This document shows positions 42,816-49,462 of a DNA stretch of 64,000 bases, in pieces. The stretch's first letter is position 1. Every line of letters begins with the position of its first letter. The notes under the pieces were generated by a model that was not told where the DNA came from, ran no database searches, and was given only the letters and a program-made list of their open reading frames with translations. A program made the translations under genes and the position numbers. Source of the stretch: an uncultured Ruficoccus sp. (GTDB lineage Bacteria; Verrucomicrobiota; Verrucomicrobiia; Opitutales; Cerasicoccaceae); the NCBI GenBank assembly GCA_965140785.1, contig OZ223510.1, forward strand, positions 96,001 to 160,000, in the 5' to 3' direction.

Positions 42816-43025
42816 GCGTCCGTTGTGTCTACTTCGACTTATTCGTTTTCGATATGAAGCCGAATTGGGCTTGTTCACGCAACATAACGTAAACTCCGTC
42901 TCTATATTTATGATTCAGTTTCTAATAATTATCGGTAAGGGCTTTGTGTCCTGTTGTCTGTGGAGGATCGCTTCCCTCGGCAACAGACCGGGACCCCTCG
43001 TTCGAAATATTGGAAAGCGGGCTTA

Positions 43026-43159
43026 TGCACACAATTGACTGGTTATTGATCGTGGTGCCGCTCTTGGCGGTGTTTGGGATCGGAGTATTCACGCATCGGT
43101 ACATGCGCAGCGTGGCGGTGGGGTGGCAAGCGAGACCGTTTACGGAGGAATTCACGCGT
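43026..43159 (+). pseudogene. Truncated sodium:solute symporter N-terminus
   Basis: MHTIDWLLIVVPLLAVFGIGVFTHRYMRSVA, typical SSS start, cut just before an IS end. Confidence 0.65.
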
Positions 43160-43470
43160 TGACCGTGTCCACGTAAACTGGGCCGCTTGCAAAGTTAGTC
43201 TGAGTGCTTAGAAAGGACTCAGAGTATGAAAGGTAAGCGATACAGTACCGAACAGAAGATCCGTATTTTACGAGCCGCTGATGCTGGCGGAGCGATCGTT
43301 GATGTTTGCCGCGAGGCAGGAATCAGCGAGCAGGCTTTTCACCGCTGGAAGCGGGTACCGACCCTGTGCCGCTAGGTACGGCGACACTCAAGCGAAGCGA
43401 AGACAGCCTCAACCGCGAGTTGTTTTACACACTCACCGAGGCCCGCGTGGTCATCGAGGACTGGCGGCGG
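43160..43470 (+). mobile_element. Internally deleted IS3 remnant
   Basis: TGACCGTGTCCACGTAAACTG left end, orfA start, then jump to LNRELFYTLTEARVVIEDW. Confidence 0.88.
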
Positions 43471-43477
43471 TCAGTCG

Positions 43478-43556
43478 AAGGGATCATGTCAAAGATTTAA
43501 ATGCTGATTGCTCCCTGGACTTGTGTAGTTTTCCTAAACTATTGACATGACCCCTT
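43478..43556. repeat. 79-bp palindromic element, copy 1
   Basis: AAGGGATCATGTCAAAGATTTA...TAAACTATTGACATGACCCCTT; slightly diverged from copies 2 and 3. Confidence 0.92.
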
Positions 43557-43597
43557 GGTCTGACCCTTTAGGTACATTCGATTTACTTTAATCTAGA

Positions 43598-44689
43598 ATG
43601 AAAAAAAAATATTTAGGATTACTTTTGATTGTAGCGGCACTAGGCGTTTCTATGCCTTTTTTAAGGCATAAAGAGATTGAATCGAAAGTTGATTCTCGGC
43701 CATCTCCGGATGTTCAAAGAAATGAAAATTTTGTATCTAAAATCGATCCAAAAGATAGCAAATCGATAGAGTCAGTAGCGGCAAGTTCCGATGGCGAATT
43801 AATTGATGTTGAAAAACCAATGAACATGAGTGCCTCGGATTGGAGCTTTATGGTGAACAACCACAAGAGGTTTGCTGCTGATAATATGCCTATTAATTTT
43901 TATGGTGTTATTGTTGATCAGCAAGATATCCCAGTTGAAGGAGCAAAAGTACAAATTAAGATATCTGCCTATGATCCATCATTTTCAGCTCAATTAACCT
44001 CAGAGGGAATGAAAACTTTAGAGACAGTCATCGAGGTCGAAAGTGACAAGAATGGCATGTTTTCAATCCGAAATGAATATGGGCGTACGCTGAGGGTCTT
44101 ATCTATATCAAAATCGGGCTATGAGGCTTTGAAGTCTTTTAGATCAGGGTACTCTTATGGAAAAAGTATCGGGGACAAACATCAAGCGAATGAAAGTGAT
44201 CCTGTTCGCTTCAAGCTATGGAAAGCCTCTGAGCCTGCTGAATTAATCAAGATTGATATGGAGATAGACATTTCTGAGAGTTCCGGGCCTGTTTATCTGG
44301 ACTTGAAATCTGGAGATACATTCAGTGTTCAAAACGGGTCATCCGATCTTGAGTTGAGGATGAACTTTATCGAAAAACAGCAGTCGAATCGTTATGGTTG
44401 GGGAATCGTTATCAAGGTGTTGGATGGTGGGATTGCGCTTAGTGATGGCTTTCTTTTTGAGGCGCCAGAAGATGGTTATCTTTCAAGTATTGATTTTTTG
44501 TTTGAGCCAGAAAGCAAACAATGGACTCAACGAATCAATAAAAGGATGTTTGTAAGGAGTAGAGAAGGGAAGCTCTACGCTGGTTTAGTTTTTACTTTTT
44601 ATGCTTACCATACGGGTAACGGGAAGGCTATGTTAAAAGGTTTTTTTAATCCTAATGGTTCGAGAAATTTACAACCGCAAAAACAATAG
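43598..44689 (+). CDS. AT-rich secreted protein with carboxypeptidase-regulatory-like (beta-sandwich) domain
   Basis: N-terminal TM; INFYGVIVDQQDIPVEGAKV, SDKNGMFSI, SKSGY; ends NPNGSRNL. Confidence 0.75.
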   Translation: MKKKYLGLLLIVAALGVSMPFLRHKEIESKVDSRPSPDVQRNENFVSKIDPKDSKSIESVAASSDGELIDVEKPMNMSASDWSFMVNNHKRFAADNMPINFYGVIVDQQDIPVEGAKVQIKISAYDPSFSAQLTSEGMKTLETVIEVESDKNGMFSIRNEYGRTLRVLSISKSGYEALKSFRSGYSYGKSIGDKHQANESDPVRFKLWKASEPAELIKIDMEIDISESSGPVYLDLKSGDTFSVQNGSSDLELRMNFIEKQQSNRYGWGIVIKVLDGGIALSDGFLFEAPEDGYLSSIDFLFEPESKQWTQRINKRMFVRSREGKLYAGLVFTFYAYHTGNGKAMLKGFFNPNGSRNLQPQKQ

Positions 44690-44778
44690 GCCACTTCGAT
44701 CAAGGTAGTGATTTAGATCGAGCCTTCCAGATGTGCTATTTCATATGCCCGCGAAGCGGCGTGAGAGGTCATTGAAGG

Positions 44779-44817
44779 GCCTGACCCGTTAACTTTTTAG
44801 AATAGTTGTTCATTGAC
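44779..44817 (+). repeat. Cassette-end repeat B, copy 1
   Basis: GCCTGACCCGTTAACTTTTTAGAATAGTTGTTCATTGAC. Confidence 0.85.
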
Positions 44818-44865
44818 AGGGACTTACAGGCGGGAAGCATTTTCGTGGTGCTGGCTGAGTCCCAC

Positions 44866-46179
44866 TGACCGTGTCCACTTAAACTGAGCCGCTTGCAAAG
44901 TTAGTCTGAGTGCTTAGAAAGGACTCAGACGATGAAAGGCAAGCGATACAGTACAGAGCAAAAAATCCGCATTTTACGCGCCGCTGATGCTGGCAGAGCG
45001 ATCGTGGATGTCTGCCGCGAGGCAGGGATCAGCGAGCAGACGTTCCACCGCTGGAAGCGGGAGCTTGGGATGCTGGAAGTCGATCAGGCCAAGCAACTGA
45101 AGGAACTGCAAAAGGAGAACGCTCGGCTGAAGCGTATGCTGGCGGACGAGATACTTGGTAAGGAGCTGCTGAAGGAGGCGCTCGAAAAAAAATGGTAAGC
45201 CCTGCACACAAGCGCGAGATGGCGCAAACTCTGGTGTCGCAGGGCAGATGTTCAGCGCGGGCGGCCTGCCGTCACTTTGGGTTGCATCGCAGTACCTTCG
45301 GCTATCAGGCGAAGGAGACTACGCCCTGGTTGGCAAAGTTACGTGGGGCTTTGCGTCGCAAGAGCGAAGCGCATCCCGAGCTGGGTTACCCGAAAATCAC
45401 TCATCTACTCAAGCGCGATGGTTGGGACGTAGGTAAGCGGCTGGTGCAGCGCCTGCGCCAGGAGATGGGGCTGAAGTGTCCGACTAAGAAGCCTCGTCAG
45501 CGTCGGCGCGGCCCCTCGACGGGCTTACCGACAAAGGCTACTCATCGCAACCACGTGTGGACCTGCGACTTCGTGGCCGACCGTACGGCTAAGGGCGGAT
45601 CAATCCGCATGCTCACGGTACTCGATGAGTACACCCGTGAGTGCCTGTGCATCCACGTCGATCGCCACCTCAACGCCGCCAAGGTGCGAGCCGTCATGAG
45701 CGAGTTGATCAGTGCCTACGGCAGCCCCGAGCACATCCGTAGCGACAACGGCAGCGAGTTTATCGAGAAGAGCCTGCGTAAATGGTACGCGGACGAGGAG
45801 ATCAAGACGCTCTACATTGAGCCGGGCAGTCCCTGGCAGAACGGCTACATAGAATCCTTCAACGGCAGACTCCGCGATGAGTGCCTCACCGCGAGTGGTT
45901 TTATACGCTCACCGAGGCACGCGTCGTCATCGAGGACTGGCGATGGAAGTACAACAACATCCGACCCCACCGTTCACTCGGACTGCTCACACCACTGGAG
46001 TTTGCAGCCAAAGAAACCGCACCAACCCCCTTCGACATCAACTTCCAAGGCATGGGCTACACTCGGGCTACGCCCTCCTTCCGCCCAAGCCTTGACACCC
46101 TCTACAACCTAACCCTAAATCACATCATTAACCCGCTCAGACTAACTCTCAATGCGGTACAGTTTGCGTAGGCAGGTCA
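44866..46179 (+). mobile_element. IS3-family element, near-identical to 22893 copy, orfB frameshifted
   Basis: Same IRs; orfA 44932-45198; 1-bp deletion (GCCTCACCGC vs GCCTCAACCGC) near 45888. Confidence 0.95.
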
Positions 46180-46182
46180 TCC

Positions 46183-46389
46183 TCTTGGGCGAGTGCTTTT
46201 TCAGGTTTTGCATCTAAATACCATGAGAATCCTAAATTAACTGAAGGAGAGATTATTGCACTATATGGTGGAATGGGCTCATTTAATGATATTATTCTCT
46301 ATCGCGGGGGAAAGGTCGCTGTGACGGAAACTAATAATTTGGACGATATGCGTTCACGCTTATTTGCTCTTTGCCGACGAAATCAATGA
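46183..46389 (+). pseudogene. 3' fragment of DUF6966-like putative immunity protein
   Basis: Manual translation SWASAFSGF...LYGGMGSFNDIILY...LDDMRSRLFALCRRNQ*; 5' end replaced by IS. Confidence 0.6.
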
Positions 46390-46429
46390 GCCTGACCCGT
46401 TAATTTTTTAGGAATAGTTGTTCATTGAC
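46390..46429 (+). repeat. Cassette-end repeat B, copy 2
   Basis: GCCTGACCCGTTAATTTTTTAGGAATAGTTGTTCATTGAC directly after the stop codon. Confidence 0.85.
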
Positions 46430-46496
46430 GGTCATTTAGGGATGCGCAGGTTTTTTGTGGTGCAACCCCAGTTTCAGCTTCTCTTGGTCAAAGCAC

Positions 46497-46575
46497 AAGG
46501 AGTCATGTCAATAATTTAAATGCTGATTGCTCCCTTGACTTGTGTAGTTGTTCTAAATTATTGACATGACCCCTT
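46497..46575. repeat. 79-bp palindromic element, copy 2
   Basis: AAGGAGTCATGTCAATAATTTA...TAAATTATTGACATGACCCCTT. Confidence 0.95.
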
Positions 46576-46701
46576 CAGATTCTGCGTGACGTGCGGAATA
46601 TCTATCAACAGGATGGTCTGTATACTCCGTATATTAGGCAGCAGCTTCAAGAGATGACCCGCTTGAGCAAGGAACTGTATCCTACCATTTTTGCAAAATG
46701 A
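46576..46701 (+). pseudogene. Extreme C-terminal fragment of a probable polymorphic toxin
   Basis: QILRDVRNIYQQDGLYTPYIRQQLQEMTRLSKELYPTIFAK*; stop overlaps immunity start (ATGA). Confidence 0.55.
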
Positions 46702-47141
46702 GCAGTATTGAAGAGTTAGGACTTATTTTATCTCAAAGAAAACATGGGTATATACAAGCAGTTGAACAATGCTTGGGACAGTTGTGTACTTCTGTTGACG
46801 AAAATATTTTACTTGGCCTTTTCTCCTTGTTTGACGACAGCGCAGAAGATGAGGTTATGTTCTTAATTATTCATACGGTCGAGAGCGTTGATGACGATCT
46901 CTATTGTAAATGCCTGTTTGAATCCGTCGAGTCGCTGTGGAGCCATTCTCCTCGATGGACTCAAATATTGCATATTAGAGTAATGAACTCTTTAACCACA
47001 TTAAGTGTCTACTTGAAATTATATAAGCATGCACCTCAATCACAGTGTCGTGTTGTTGATGAGATCTATAGCTCGATTGAATCTGGATGGCCAAATATTG
47101 CCGCTAAAGCACGGGCGGTCCGTGATGCCATGACGAAATAA
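46698..47141 (+). CDS. Imm30-like immunity protein
   Basis: LFDDSAEDEVMFLIIHTVE..W..ILHIRVMNS pattern. Confidence 0.7.
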   Translation: MSSIEELGLILSQRKHGYIQAVEQCLGQLCTSVDENILLGLFSLFDDSAEDEVMFLIIHTVESVDDDLYCKCLFESVESLWSHSPRWTQILHIRVMNSLTTLSVYLKLYKHAPQSQCRVVDEIYSSIESGWPNIAAKARAVRDAMTK

Positions 47142-47152
47142 ACACCGACGGG

Positions 47153-47173
47153 TGACCCGTTAATTTTTAGGAA
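47153..47173 (+). repeat. Cassette-end repeat B, copy 3 (truncated)
   Basis: TGACCCGTTAATTTTTAGGAA 11 bp after Imm30-like stop. Confidence 0.75.
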
Positions 47174-47598
47174 CACCAACGGCAGAACCTAGCACGTGGA
47201 GTATGCGATTTCTGAAAATCAACCTACGCGCCAACCACGGCATGTCGGATGCCAGTCTGGGAATAAACGCAGTAAAGAGCTTCTCGACTACCAACCCTCC
47301 ATGTTATGTATTCAGGAGCAAATCTCGCCTACATCTAACTGAACAACGAAACACCTTGCCCGCCTCGTGATGCTGTCCCGGTTAACCCCGAAGGCCCATT
47401 GATATCTTTCAATCTGAACCTCAGTTCCTATTCGGTAATCGTGCGACCCTTTACGCTATGTCCTTTTATTCGATGGGTAGCTTTCGAAGGAAGCAATCAT
47501 CTAGGAAGGACAAGCTGGCTGAAAATGCTCTGGTTAACAGTTTCTGAGCCTTTTTGCTCCCCGGAGAAAAACAGAGAATTTTCCGAGGGAGGGAGCAC

Positions 47599-47677
47599 AA
47601 GGGGTCATGTCAATAATTTAAATGCTGATTGCTCCCTTGACTTGTGTAGTTGTTCTAAATTATTGACATGACCCCTT
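47599..47677. repeat. 79-bp palindromic element, copy 3 (perfect 22-bp terminal IRs)
   Basis: AAGGGGTCATGTCAATAATTTA-N35-TAAATTATTGACATGACCCCTT. Confidence 0.95.
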
Positions 47678-48195
47678 CAGGTTACACCAACTGGATTCCG
47701 GGAGGGAACTTTGCGTTGGGGGTAAGCATGTACTTCGGTAAGCCTTGGGCGCGTCAATATGCAGGTGAATATTCGTGGAAGGGTACTATCGACTTGGGAG
47801 TAGATGCCGCCACCGCAGGGATATTCGGCATGGCTGGGAAAGGATTGAGATCCCTCCGTTTTGCCGATGAGTTCGCAGAGGGAGTGTTTGGCAGTGAACG
47901 AGGACTGGGACGTGTTACAGGTTCTTTTGATGCAATCAATCCGGGGCCACTTTCAGATGATCTTGCTGGCACATTTGCTGGGGGAAGGTATAGTGAAATT
48001 ATATTGGAATCAGATACAATCCTATACCGTGCTGGGCAAACCAATAAGCCGTTGGGTGAGTTTTTTGATACAGTTCCAGCTGAGGGTGTATTGCAATCGA
48101 GAATTGACAAAGCTATATTGCCAATTTGGCCTGGCGGTGGCTGCGACTTTGGTCGGAGACTTCATCTATATCATCGGCGCACTCGGGTATCCTGA
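47668..48195 (+). pseudogene. Rhs/CDI-type C-terminal toxin fragment (3' truncated)
   Basis: Gly/Ala-rich pre-toxin linker then NPGPL..TFAGGRY..LYRAG..PLGEFF..RIDKAILPIWP; ATG lies inside the palindromic element. Confidence 0.65.
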
Positions 48196-48442
48196 TTCGC
48201 GGAAACACGATTTTACCCCAGTTTATCGACTTTCCCTCGAAGACTACAGTATTGAATGTGTCGAGACGTCAGGTTCGGCGCCGGGGTGGATTTATCGGCA
48301 CCGAGCAATACTCCAAGCAGACAATGTAATCCGTATTAGCGGAGGGTTGAAGGAGATCAAAGGTAAAGGCGAGGTGTTGCATATTGAGAATCAGCAGACA
48401 TACGAGTTGGACCTCATAAAACGCTTGTGGACAGCGGTTTGA
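48140..48442 (+). pseudogene. 3' fragment of kelch-like/ankyrin-associated protein
   Basis: ATLVGDFIYIIGALGY..TPVYRL..PGWIYRHRA..ISGG in a different frame fused to the toxin fragment. Confidence 0.5.
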
Positions 48443-48457
48443 TCGGCACCCACGGCC

Positions 48458-49462
48458 CTATGCTTGCGGATTGGGGGCGGGAGTGGCAGGAGTGGAGTGG
48501 ACATCCGTGATGGAGATGATATTTCGGCGGGTGTCGTCGGCGTAGTGGGCGTAGTCCTTGTCCATTTTCGGGGGGACTTTGGACTCGATGACAAAGGAGC
48601 CGGTGGCCTTCTCCTTAAACGTCTCCAGAATCTTCAATAGGCCCGGATCGACGGGGACGGCCCCGATGGAGGTTTCGGTTTTGACGGAAAAGAACGTATG
48701 CGGGGCGATGACGATTTCTCCCCTGACTGCATCGACAGATTCCCAGAGCAGTTCGCCGACATCGATTTGGCTACGGTAACGCATGGATGACGACTTTAGC
48801 ATCTCGACATCGGCAAAGGGCAGGGGGGTGGGGAGCTCCATTTCCTTGAGGAGTCCGGTAATCTTGGGGCTGAACAGCGAGCGTGCGTTGCGGACAATCG
48901 AATTCGCGGTGTGCTCTGCTTTACGAATCTTGACCGGGTCATGCTGGGCCTTGGCGATTTCCGATTTCTGCCACTAGCGGATGCGGTCGGCGGTCAGGTA
49001 GCCGAGCGGGGTCTTATCGACCGCTTCACGCCATTTGAGGTGGTGTTTGTGGAAGTGGTCGTACCGCTCCTTGGTTTGAGGGATACCCTTGATGTCTGCC
49101 ACGAGGGTGCGCAGCTTCCGGCAATAGGTGGTAAAGGTTTTGGGGTTGAGGTTGGCACGCTCCTCGACGGCTTTTAGGTATTCCCCGAGGGTGACTGCTT
49201 TGACTTTGACCGCCATCTCCCCCTTAAACTCGCGGATAGTTTTATCCCAGCCGTTCGCCTTCAGGCTGATGTAAATGGCCGCTGCCCGCTTCGCTGCCTT
49301 CACCTGGTTATTGCTCCCGAGCTGGAACCACTCCCTGCGGCCCCGGTGCTGGATGTACACCTGAAACTCTTCGACCGTGGTTGCAGAGCCATCGGTTGCC
49401 TTGTAGCTGCGCTTCTTGATGCGCGACATCCAGTAGTCTTGGTGGGTTTTGGAGATGGCCAT
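48458..49462 (-). pseudogene. Tyrosine integrase pseudogene
   Basis: Arm-binding-like N-terminus (IQHRGRREWF..AAKRAAAIY), in-frame TAG at 48974-48976, VKTETS lysine present but catalytic R and HxxR regions apparently deleted. Confidence 0.75.

Follow-up and report, generated by a model that had tools for sequence, protein, structure and literature searches.

A REPIN-like 79-bp element linked to a RAYT-type transposase at the joints of toxin/immunity gene arrays in an uncultured Ruficoccus

The IS200/IS605 elements are moved by Y1 enzymes through single-strand 'peel and paste'; they have subterminal hairpin ends and no terminal inverted repeats, and they insert 3' of a fixed tetra- or pentanucleotide. 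Rhs/CDI systems reportedly form arrays of orphan toxin C-terminus (CT)-immunity modules (Poole 2011, PMC3150448; Koskiniemi 2014, PMC3967940). In REPIN/RAYT systems, or REPtrons (Bertels & Rainey 2011, PMC3116915; Ton-Hoang 2012, PMC3333891; Corneloup 2021, PMC8266576), a Y1/HUH TnpAREP-like gene lies between its own inverted repeats, and classic REPINs are reported in dozens to >100 copies. Ross et al. (bioRxiv 10.1101/471110) describe Bacteroidales rAID-1 arrays as low-GC orphan immunity arrays with co-directional ORFs and repeated intergenic sequences suggesting active acquisition, each array having an XerD-like tyrosine recombinase at its 5' end. In picocyanobacteria, TnpAREP is associated with the expansion of prochlorosin (lanthipeptide) genes; a role in diversifying recombination was proposed, and the authors later found strong evidence neither for nor against causality (bioRxiv 10.1101/2020.03.09.984088).

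The window, meaning the whole stretch of 64,000 nucleotides analysed here, contains three forward-strand copies of a 79-bp element, at 43478..43556 (copy 1, the most diverged), 46497..46575 (copy 2) and 47599..47677 (copy 3). The 22-bp terminal inverted repeats described by the first-pass annotation were confirmed: the 22-nt arm gave six matches in the window at <=3 mismatches (three left and three right arms), against a mean of 0.00 in 100 dinucleotide-preserving shuffles. The inverted arms are perfect in copy 3 and carry one mismatch in copy 2. In 90-nt alignments, copy 2 shows 82% identity to copy 1 and 98% to copy 3, with which it shares the flanks AGCAC- and -CAG, as had been annotated. 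When folded as a single strand, the element is predicted to form one long hairpin (-20.6 kcal/mol, z = -4.9), and none of 200 shuffles was as stable. Judged by eye, a single 22-nt arm is not evidently palindromic on its own, and its outer end carries no GTAG or CGTC tag; in both respects it differs from REPIN/RAYT repeats.

A search of the 4.4-Mb genome (59% GC) with the arm at <=5 mismatches returned 33 matches, which resolved into ten 78/79-bp doublets, two 1001-bp elements and, for the remainder, solo arms. The two 1001-bp elements, on contigs C10 and C43, bear the same 22-bp arms as the doublets and each encodes a 306-aa RAYT-like Y1/HUH transposase, which is the class of trans-acting enzyme that had been predicted. 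This protein matched Pfam Y1_Tnp above the cut-off (E 4.4e-9), while its best NCBIfam match, REP_Tyr_transpos, scored 64 bits, under the equivalog cut-off of 80. An alignment of 17 homologues shows no variation in the HUH motif (N59, H60, H62) or in Y119-x-HLNP, and the sole PDB match to a profile of the RAYT homologues was E. coli TnpAREP (4ER8). The two RAYT copies are 99% identical, and the copy on C43 carries R101C at a nearly invariant position. Since the long elements encode a RAYT-like Y1/HUH transposase, the 79-bp element was assigned as a REPIN/MITE-like derivative of the RAYT unit, and the short doublets are internal-deletion derivatives of the 1001-bp unit. Target-site duplications were absent from all 12 paired elements, whose flanks also showed no fixed target sequence. 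Of 25 exact TGACCCCTT 9-mers outside the arms, 7 are no more than 25 bp from an arm and match it in orientation; these form tandem units of spacer plus end, a structure also present in one metagenome contig.

The reading favoured here, with a probability of about 0.7, is that the 79-bp element is a REPIN tied to toxin/immunity arrays, a non-autonomous, hairpin-forming doublet of the repeats flanking a RAYT-like gene. The annotation had not recognised a described system, but the repeat and its enzyme form a pair of the REPIN/RAYT (REPtron) type: a Y1/HUH TnpAREP-like gene between its own inverted repeats, short hairpin doublets of the repeat in extragenic DNA, no target-site duplications, and a terminal repeat motif conserved along with the enzyme family. 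Observations that stand against this reading include the low copy number (~12 doublets, unlike classic REPINs), the NCBIfam score under the equivalog cut-off, the arm's lack of an evident palindrome or end tag, the many cargo ORFs that match no family, and the failure to find any cassette in two different arrays. The locus also departs from REPIN/RAYT systems in its duplicated RAYT, patchy in the genus, and in copies that sit almost only in toxin/immunity cassette arrays instead of being scattered. With IS200/IS605 it shares the enzyme superfamily (Pfam Y1_Tnp), the absence of target-site duplications and a 1-kb autonomous-looking unit in two near-identical copies plus deletion derivatives, but the element here ends in 22-bp inverted repeats and shows no fixed flanking target.

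The features surrounding the three copies lie on the forward strand unless stated. An IS3-family remnant (43160..43467), made up of the 5' 196 bp and 55 bp from the interior, ends 10 bp before copy 1, whose left side abuts this truncated IS3. Cassette 1 is an AT-rich stretch with a 363-aa ORF (43598..44689) that had been called a secreted protein; it does have an N-terminal hydrophobic segment, by eye, but no Pfam or NCBIfam match, and its homologues are all hypothetical at ~30% identity, one of them named from Verrucomicrobiota. A second cassette-end repeat (CCTGACCCGTTAAyTTTTTAG...TTCATTGAC) at 44779..44817, which includes a REP-end-like TGACCCGTT, has further copies at 46390-46428 and, shortened, at 47150-47171; this last copy scores as a terminator-like hairpin at 47147-47161. 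An IS3-family insertion sequence (44866..46174), with an HTH_Tnp_1 orfA and a frameshifted rve orfB, lies directly upstream of a DUF6966 gene fragment (46180..46389; PF22294, E 3.6e-12) that forms the rest of cassette 2. At position 45887 of this IS3 copy, one extra A was present in each of one X1 and one X2 contig, among the matches listed. The first-pass annotation mentions neither this IS3 copy nor the remnant.

A 41-codon ORF (46576..46701) begins at the first base 3' of copy 2, and its stop overlaps the start (ATGA) of an Imm30 immunity gene (46698..47141; PF15565, E 2e-14). The Imm30-like half of the earlier description of this cassette was confirmed; the 41-codon ORF is presumed to be the tail of the cognate toxin, and because a homologue search gave none the label 'toxin tail' stays presumptive. 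A conserved array-end motif (CCAACGGCAGAACCTAGCACG; 47176..47196) recurs at C10:294805, where it closes the ORF next after the Rhs gene, at C48:376399, and at loci L044 of genome G001 and L051 of genome G007, making three species in all.

The third cargo is a polymorphic-toxin C-terminal fragment (47668..48195) whose ATG is supplied by the right arm of copy 3. The Rhs/CDI-type toxin assignment was borne out, as 47704-48144 matches the C-terminal toxin domains of RHS, Hcp/TssD, PAAR-like and Fil_haemagg_2/filamentous-haemagglutinin-type proteins. The fragment is truncated at both ends, lacking its N-terminal carrier and ~56 aa at the C-terminal end, a truncation on which the first-pass annotation is silent; the upstream part of the toxin is not encoded in the left flank of copy 3. 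Fused to it is the C-terminal fragment of an unrelated ORF (48145..48442), with a weak Kelch-like match well under the Pfam cut-off. A reverse-strand tyrosine-integrase pseudogene (48458..49462), with two internal deletions relative to a 440-aa homologue in genome G003, borders the array. No Rhs core was found within the window, as had been noted, but another array trails the only Rhs gene detected in the genome.

Across the genome, eight of nine REP loci touch an island of <45% GC, although such windows make up 4.5% of the sequence. Arrays on contigs C12, C43, C10, C48 and C39 have one or two co-oriented ORFs per interval, and 11 of 12 doublets are oriented as the ORFs. The copies take up one intergenic gap after another in these arrays and hardly any elsewhere in the genome. 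With their clustering in AT-rich arrays and their lack of target-site duplications, they are not ordinary duplication-making MITEs in random contexts. The array cargo comprises Imm30, DUF6966, DUF4274, DUF3997, HEPN, a weak AHH match (tail) and the Rhs/Hcp/PAAR-type toxin fragment; most cargo ORFs have no family match. In their displaced toxin C-terminal fragments and cognate immunity genes, AT-rich and co-oriented, these arrays resemble the Rhs/CDI orphan arrays, and one lies directly downstream of the full Rhs gene on C10 (the only Rhs core detected in the assembly) as its orphan tail. Unlike in Rhs/CDI arrays, however, the inter-module repeat is a transposase-linked hairpin and not a piece of Rhs core, and four of the five arrays have no adjacent Rhs gene.

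Sister-species arrays are built alike and carry Imm22, DUF2750 and a weak Imm74 match, adding to the toxin/immunity signatures that the annotation had anticipated in the cargo. Sister species also have longer doublets, of 108 and 185 bp, in which more of each end of the RAYT unit is preserved. In three species (G000, G003 and G007) the Rhs-CT/immunity pair is followed by a REP arm or a RAYT remnant, and no similarity was detected between their CT regions. Array flanks are not syntenic between the species compared. Searched with the RAYT of this genome as query (E <= 1e-10), the genomes G001 (98% complete), G004 and G007 gave no match. The presence of RAYT in two 99% identical copies and its patchiness in the genus point to IS-like behaviour and not to a domesticated single-copy RAYT. 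Among 27 RAYT-homologue loci of other Verrucomicrobiota, 17 have flanking inverted repeats of at least 15 nt and 13 contain GGGTCAG. In GC-rich metagenome contigs the same arms are ordinary dispersed REPINs in high-GC contexts, not next to cassettes; the tie to cassettes is therefore lineage-specific and could be incidental.

The copies are junctions and not clean insertions, the sequences to the left and right of a copy being unrelated. An unlikely explanation, which was that of the first-pass annotation, is that RAYT cleaves single strands at the ends of REPs, after ...GACCCCTT, and both excises and integrates the cassette between two such sites, the REPIN being an attC-like site and the enzyme the builder of the arrays. 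Cargo that starts at the first base 3' of the right arm, as seen both in the window and at C10:294952, would fit such a process, as would the one or two co-oriented ORFs in every interval, the lack of target-site duplications and the position of a RAYT copy within the C43 array. The TGACCCCTT tandem units likewise resemble mini-products of end-directed joining. The arm is ~100% conserved while the cognate RAYT is only 54-55% identical, as expected if selection maintains the arm as a site for a protein; and in vitro TnpAREP cuts REPs in single-stranded form and links them to an unrelated oligonucleotide with a 3'-OH (PMC8266576). Against this, the C48 copies have their breakpoints inside the element and not at its end, no cassette common to different arrays or genomes was found, and the public (Logan) contigs yielded no circle and no trustworthy excision joint, the candidates being weak or ambiguous (one skip with only 20 letters on the shorter side; the rest switch strand or re-enter the repeat). 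Arrays persist in G001 and G007 where the RAYT match is absent, the C43 RAYT has its R101C change, and the same REPINs in other organisms do not lie beside cassettes. Diverged direct repeats surround the C43 array (357 bp, 88% identical) and the C10c cassette (109 bp, 93%); long repeats bracketing two arrays in this way suit RecA-type integration and point to single-crossover homologous recombination. Integron-like capture by an enzyme stays hypothetical.

Somewhat less probable still is that REPINs and IS3 elements simply pile up in AT-rich islands, by harmless insertion or local hopping, with no part in the gain or loss of cassettes. The arrays do resemble junkyards, with their truncated toxins, integrase pseudogene and IS3 copy and remnant, local hopping fits the likeness of copies within arrays (doublet identity 88% within and 80% between arrays), and elsewhere the same REPINs are ordinary dispersed repeats; moreover, most of the 132 low-GC islands in the genome are REP-free. 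A passenger role, however, does not explain why copies stand at junctions of unrelated sequences, why they occupy successive array gaps, or why a REP comes after the Rhs-CT/immunity module in three species whose toxins differ.

It is very improbable, and largely refuted, that the element is the ordinary MITE of some DDE transposon or that it serves a tyrosine recombinase as an attC-like site, in the manner of integrons and rAID-1 arrays. Terminal inverted repeats are present, an integrase pseudogene borders the window array and the rAID-1 arrays look alike (low GC, co-directional immunity genes, repeated intergenic sequences; bioRxiv 10.1101/471110), but target-site duplications are absent, the full-length parent encodes a Y1/HUH protein and not a DDE enzyme, and the element ends lack the attC consensus, as had been noted. 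The genome has 14 PF00589 matches, of which none is next to the C12, C43, C10a or C48 arrays; unlike in rAID-1, the linked enzyme is the Y1/HUH transposase inside one array or elsewhere in the genome.

For the REPIN reading, we infer a role in cassette turnover from anatomy only. RAYT would mobilise the hairpins via single-stranded DNA, and the array copies would then serve as portable breakpoints and shared homology. Homologous recombination between co-oriented REPINs, and between other shared flanks, might account for most cassette gain, displacement and truncation; deletion stimulated by the palindromes could add to this turnover, and RAYT cut-and-join at REP ends may contribute as well. 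The prochlorosin case is similar in that a RAYT-type enzyme co-localises with hypervariable genes for presumed antibacterial products, although cargo and phylum differ here and the abstract of that preprint (bioRxiv 10.1101/2020.03.09.984088) does not report a REPIN-per-cassette architecture. In this genus, the element is found almost exclusively where imported toxin-fragment and immunity genes meet, a position that hints at a role in shuffling them.

Three copies of the 79-bp element, each with 22-bp terminal inverted repeats (arms) around a 35-bp core, were located, as the first-pass annotation had reported, at 43478-43556 (copy 1), 46497-46575 (copy 2) and 47599-47677 (copy 3). The window contained six matches to the arm, AAGGGGTCATGTCAATAATTTA, at up to three mismatches, against a mean of 0.00 in 100 shuffled sequences, and the repetition is real and non-random. 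Copies 2 and 3 were 98% identical over 90 nt, including the common flanks AGCAC and CAG. Folding was computed for the whole doublet, and the single-stranded element gave one long hairpin (-20.6 kcal/mol, z = -4.9) whose stability was reached by 0 of 200 shuffles; the arm by itself showed no self-complementarity by eye and no terminal GTAG or CGTC. A search of 43000-49000 against Rfam at E <= 0.1 returned no family, and a promoter and terminator scan gave nothing above shuffled expectation and nothing on the doublets themselves. The same scan listed a terminator-like hairpin in the second repeat at 47147. Positions 47147-47196 of the window read AACACCGACGG [GTGACCCGTTAATTTTTAGG] AACACCAACGG, a 20-nt piece with a REP-end-like motif and the terminator-like hairpin between two copies of an 11-nt sequence, and the 20-nt piece resembles the micro-repeats of spacer plus arm end seen at the ends of the doublets.

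The origin of the element was traced in the source genome assembly (4.36 Mb in 50 contigs, 59% GC). A fuzzy search allowing up to five substitutions recovered 33 arms, which paired as ten doublets of 78/79 bp and two elements of 1001 bp, the remainder being solo arms. The two longer units, at C43:224653-225653 and C10:480074-481074 (C denoting contigs of this genome), are bounded by the same 22-bp arms as the 79-bp element and each encodes a protein of 306 amino acids. This protein matched Pfam Y1_Tnp (PF01797) above cut-off (E 4.4e-9), while its best NCBIfam match, the 'REP-associated tyrosine transposase' REP_Tyr_transpos (NF047646), scored 64 bits, below the cut-off of 80. The HUH motif residues N59, H60 and H62 and the sequence Y119-x-H-L-N-P were invariant across 17 aligned homologues. 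A profile of 17 RAYT sequences had E. coli TnpAREP (4ER8, E 0.005) as its sole match in the PDB, where the single sequence found none. A RAYT-like Y1/HUH transposase, of the kind that the first-pass annotation had suggested looking for, is therefore encoded in this genome. The two RAYT genes were 99% identical. At a nearly invariant position, the gene at C43:224714-225634 encodes QGCY, as opposed to QGRY at C10:480135-481055 and in the 16 other aligned homologues; judged from this substitution (R101C), the array-resident C43 copy may be impaired. The right end of the C10 unit is abutted by a C-terminal fragment of a tyrosine integrase (C10:481075-481290; ...DFHSLRHT, PF00589 positions 111-168), and low-GC restriction/ATPase-like genes (481.6-485.4 kb) and a resolvase-like ORF (485.6-486.2 kb) follow the unit.

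The beginning of the 35-bp core resembles that of the left end of the RAYT unit. The doublets of sister species measure 108 or 185 bp; those of 185 bp retain about 110 bp from the left end of the RAYT unit and 60 bp from its right end. Together these features indicate that the short elements are REPIN/MITE-like derivatives formed by internal deletion. Direct flank repeats of at least 3 bp were present at 0 of 12 paired elements, which excludes an ordinary DDE-type MITE generating target-site duplications, the reading against which the first-pass annotation had set its own. RAYT homologues from other Verrucomicrobiota were also inspected (27 examples, 36-84% identity). Inverted repeats of at least 15 nt flank 17 of the 27, and GGGTCAG occurs at 13 of these 17 loci, so the terminal motif goes with the enzyme family. 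Set beside described REPtrons, the pairing of a RAYT with hairpin-forming doublets of REP arms (REPINs), the family has a TnpAREP/RAYT-type Y1 HUH gene with its catalytic Tyr, cognate inverted repeats around that gene (also in the relative G002 and in metagenome contigs), and over-represented extragenic hairpin doublets, at low copy number. It lacks a single-copy, vertically inherited ('domesticated') RAYT, since the source genome has two copies and the gene is patchy in relatives, and it lacks a palindromic REP with a GTAG/CGTC tag. A GTAG or CGTC tag on a short palindromic REP is given as the mark of groups 2 and 3 in two published accounts (PMC8266576, PMC3733652). The present pair is thus a variant and not a typical member of the class.

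The copies were clustered. Five arrays were found, on C39 (the window, C39:96001-160000), C43, C12, C10 (~295 kb) and C48 (~190 kb); elsewhere lay the second RAYT copy and three solo arms. Eight of nine REP loci touch a window below 45% GC, a class making up 4.5% of the genome, and doublet and ORF orientation agree in 11 of 12 cases, a weak statistic, as copies within one array are not independent. Every inter-REPIN interval in the arrays holds one or two ORFs of 26-45% GC, all on the same strand. Stretches of 13-35 kb below 45% GC and free of REP arms also occur, on C9, C20, C28, C41 and at C39:275601-305800, probably representing large islands of foreign DNA or contigs binned in error.

The nature of the cargo was examined by family searches, in which most of the ORFs had no family at all. 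Matches were obtained for Imm30 and a DUF6966 fragment in the window, for DUF4274 beside a weak AHH-nuclease-like tail on C48, and for DUF3997 and HEPN on C12. The ORF after copy 3 matched the toxin C-terminal domains of RHS, Hcp/TssD, PAAR-like (DUF4150) and Fil_haemagg_2 proteins (15 matches, best E 6e-34). This homology is limited to 47704-48144: the toxin lacks its carrier part and its last ~56 residues, and the missing upstream part is not encoded to the left of copy 3. Longer proteins yielded no homologue of the 41-residue tail. The earlier assignment of the cargo to toxin and immunity functions is supported by the sequence signatures of Imm30 and the Rhs-type C-terminal (CT) fragment, and finds no such backing for the 41-residue tail or for the majority of ORFs. 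The C10 array is the tail of the sole Rhs gene found in the genome: a 2210-residue Rhs ORF ending ...NPWTKFDPQGL plus CT is followed by a 68-residue ORF, a REPIN, a 65-residue tail ORF starting at the arm's own ATG, a 105-residue ORF and a REPIN with inverted core. The hallmark of Rhs orphan CT/immunity arrays is accordingly present, in this Rhs tail and in the window's CT fragment and Imm30, and no Rhs core fragment was found between the window's modules.

Several other genes adjoin the arrays. DUF932-like genes (weak Pfam matches) lie beside two REP arrays, at C43:222731-223087 and 226874-227230 and at C10:630331-630942, and the C43 array has the 3' part of such a gene on either side, the two copies being 88% identical. 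The window carries an IS3-family element at 44866-46174 (orfA HTH_Tnp_1, orfB rve) and an internally deleted, truncated second copy at 43160-43467. In the full copy orfB is frameshifted, and one contig from each of two public read data sets (X1 and X2) is listed at 45887 with one extra A, so that this copy looks inactivated. A phage-type tyrosine integrase pseudogene occupies 48458-49462 on the minus strand; it lacks two internal segments relative to a 440-residue homologue in the relative G003 (L113:2613-3932), at least the second deletion falling between short direct repeats (AHY...AHY), and the toxin/immunity array begins a few bases past its stop.

The arm was next sought outside the source genome. 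Of 301 genomes drawn from the order, 6 had it, all members of one family, whereas a reversed control pattern occurred in 0. In G001, G002 and G003 of the same genus and in G007 of another genus, arms border stretches of 35-43% GC, and among the cargo of the relatives are Imm22 (DUF4284), DUF2750 and an Imm74 match that fell short of the cut-off. The Rhs-CT/immunity pair of G003 is directly followed by a RAYT unit with an internal deletion and that of G007 by a solo arm, so that three species have a REP after the Rhs toxin/immunity module; the CT regions of the G000 (source genome), G003 and G007 modules gave no detected similarity to one another. The motif GAACACCRACGGCAGAACCTAGCACG recurs at cassette or array ends in G000 (window 47176, C10:294805, C48:376399), G001 and G007. 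With this RAYT as query at E <= 1e-10, G002 had one full copy (84% identity) and a fragment and G003 a truncated copy, and none was found in G001 (98% complete), G004 or G007 (97% complete). The left and right flanks of the window map to different contigs in G001-G004, where orthologous DNA is ~67-69% identical. A metagenome scan gave 29 stretches with the arm, mostly in contigs of 67-70% GC. In these GC-rich contigs the arms form perfect palindromic doublets of 42-75 bp that are dispersed in ordinary DNA and flank RAYT genes, several standing, by eye, directly after apparent stop codons; the family can therefore exist as a classic REPIN population without cassettes. The metagenome RAYTs are 54-55% identical to that of G000 and the arms ~100%, so that the arm is under strong constraint as a protein site.

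At the junctions, the REPIN copies join stretches of DNA that are unrelated to each other. Copy 1 borders an IS3 remnant interrupted mid-element, and copy 3 the toxin fragment with its missing upstream part. Doublet identity averaged 88% within arrays (9 pairs) versus 80% between arrays (57 pairs), and the doublets carry substitutions specific to their array. The arm's own ATG opens only two long ORFs, and the start of one more lies in a micro-repeat copy of the end; with two such ORFs and no promoter-like match, the right arm was rejected as a start codon or promoter. The REP end was likewise rejected as a mimic of the DPxGL-coding Rhs junction. At C10:294944, GACCCCTTCGGGTT is identical to DNA that encodes DPFGL in the Rhs gene of G007, but two codons upstream the GAC frame is already closed, and downstream it does not remain open in the cassette-array copies, so the match is possibly a coincidence. 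An ORF at L047:736-900 of G003 reads ...DPIEEKGGANLYGMVGND, which by eye has the look of an Rhs core end (no Pfam match at E <= 0.01), and continues directly into the left arm of a 185-bp doublet, placing this repeat about where a DPxGL core/toxin junction would be. Public reads covering the stretch comprise two runs of one study, both as contigs that break at repeats; candidate joints in them, such as 47191>47599, are weak, one having 20 letters on its shorter side and others a strand change or a run back through the repeat.

The element is of a known kind, a REPIN with its RAYT; what is unusual is its lineage-specific association with toxin/immunity cassette arrays. Our preferred interpretation, to which we give a probability of roughly 70%, is that in this genus the copies move together with Rhs-type orphan toxin/immunity arrays, whose breakpoints they mark. 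Cassettes would turn over mainly by homologous recombination, with co-oriented REPINs and other shared flanks as the sites of exchange, palindrome-stimulated deletion would add to this, and cut-and-join by the RAYT could contribute. TnpAREP has been shown in vitro to cut REPs in single-stranded form and to link them to unrelated 3'-OH DNA (PMC8266576), and the chemistry for such joints therefore exists.

A second interpretation develops the integron-like capture first proposed for the window. In such a 'HUH integron', the RAYT would cut after the conserved ...GACCCCTT end and join foreign DNA to it. Toxin-tail/immunity modules would in this way be taken up, stacked and swapped behind hairpin sites. 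The base-exact starts of cargo, the one- or two-ORF cassettes and the resident RAYT all fit, as do micro-repeats derived from the end: outside many ends stand tandem units of a 4-11-nt spacer plus the arm's terminal 8-10 nt, also seen at one metagenome copy, and of the genome's 25 exact TGACCCCTT 9-mers outside arms, 7 are no more than 25 bp from an arm and all 7 match its orientation. The units of spacer plus 9-nt end would be scars of the reaction. Against it, no cassette was common to different arrays in a tblastx comparison of 16 regions from G000, G001, G002, G003 and G007 (REP/RAYT masked); all that this comparison picked up was duplicated assembly in G003 and, within G001, a local duplication of 240 bp. 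Both copies on C48 retain the left arm plus the core and have lost the right arm, which puts the breakpoint inside the element. Direct target repeats of 357 bp (88% identity) enclose the whole C43 array, and others of 109 bp (93% identity) the cassette at C10:629.6 kb; long diverged repeats of this kind would be expected if a circle from a donor differing by roughly 10% had integrated through a single homologous crossover. Arrays occurring in genomes where the RAYT was not found, the R101C change in the array-resident copy, and cassette-free REPIN populations elsewhere also count against capture. The enzyme class and the toxin/immunity cargo of the original proposal thus stand, and its integron-like step appears unlikely.

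Somewhat less probable again is that the REPINs are pure passengers, since this would leave unexplained both the junction nature of the copies and the REP after an Rhs module in three species. DDE-MITEs or attC sites of a tyrosine recombinase can be practically discounted, as target-site duplications and a DDE parent are both absent, the parent enzyme is Y1/HUH, and no integrase is linked to the arrays. The integron and rAID-1 hallmarks, an IntI/XerD-like recombinase at the array 5' end and attC-type sites, were absent; GTTRRRY ends are lacking, as already observed at first pass, and the 14 PF00589 matches of the genome all lie away from the C12, C43, C10a and C48 arrays, which largely disposes of the tyrosine recombinase once offered as an alternative trans-acting enzyme. 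The window's only integrase is degraded, of phage type, and at the far end of the array.

Returning to REPIN-marked orphan arrays, a functional likeness can be drawn to Rhs orphan arrays (PMC3150448, PMC3967940) and to the rAID-1 poly-immunity clusters of Bacteroidales, described as low in GC, with genes that all point one way, sequences repeated between them and a XerD-like recombinase (bioRxiv 10.1101/471110). A tie between a RAYT and the hypervariable, presumed antibacterial-peptide genes of prochlorosins was proposed and later softened by its authors (bioRxiv 10.1101/2020.03.09.984088). Our literature search, with supplements outside its scope, found no paper tying RAYT/REPIN to toxin-immunity arrays.

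A REPIN family is here almost restricted to the joints of toxin/immunity arrays in several species of one Verrucomicrobiota genus. What benefit RAYTs and REPINs bring to their hosts is an open question, and the assembly of orphan toxin/immunity arrays outside Rhs-core recombination is poorly understood. One enzyme, one 79-bp hairpin and small cassettes make up a testable system for asking whether a Y1/HUH transposase drives or helps cassette turnover, and a capture function of the REPIN/RAYT pair in arrays is a testable hypothesis. If it holds, enzymes of a third type would build gene-cassette arrays, in addition to integron integrases and XerD-like rAID-1 recombinases, and a long-sought host function for a RAYT would be at hand. 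If shared homology and palindrome instability alone are at work, this would still be a new way for a selfish repeat to structure loci of interbacterial warfare.
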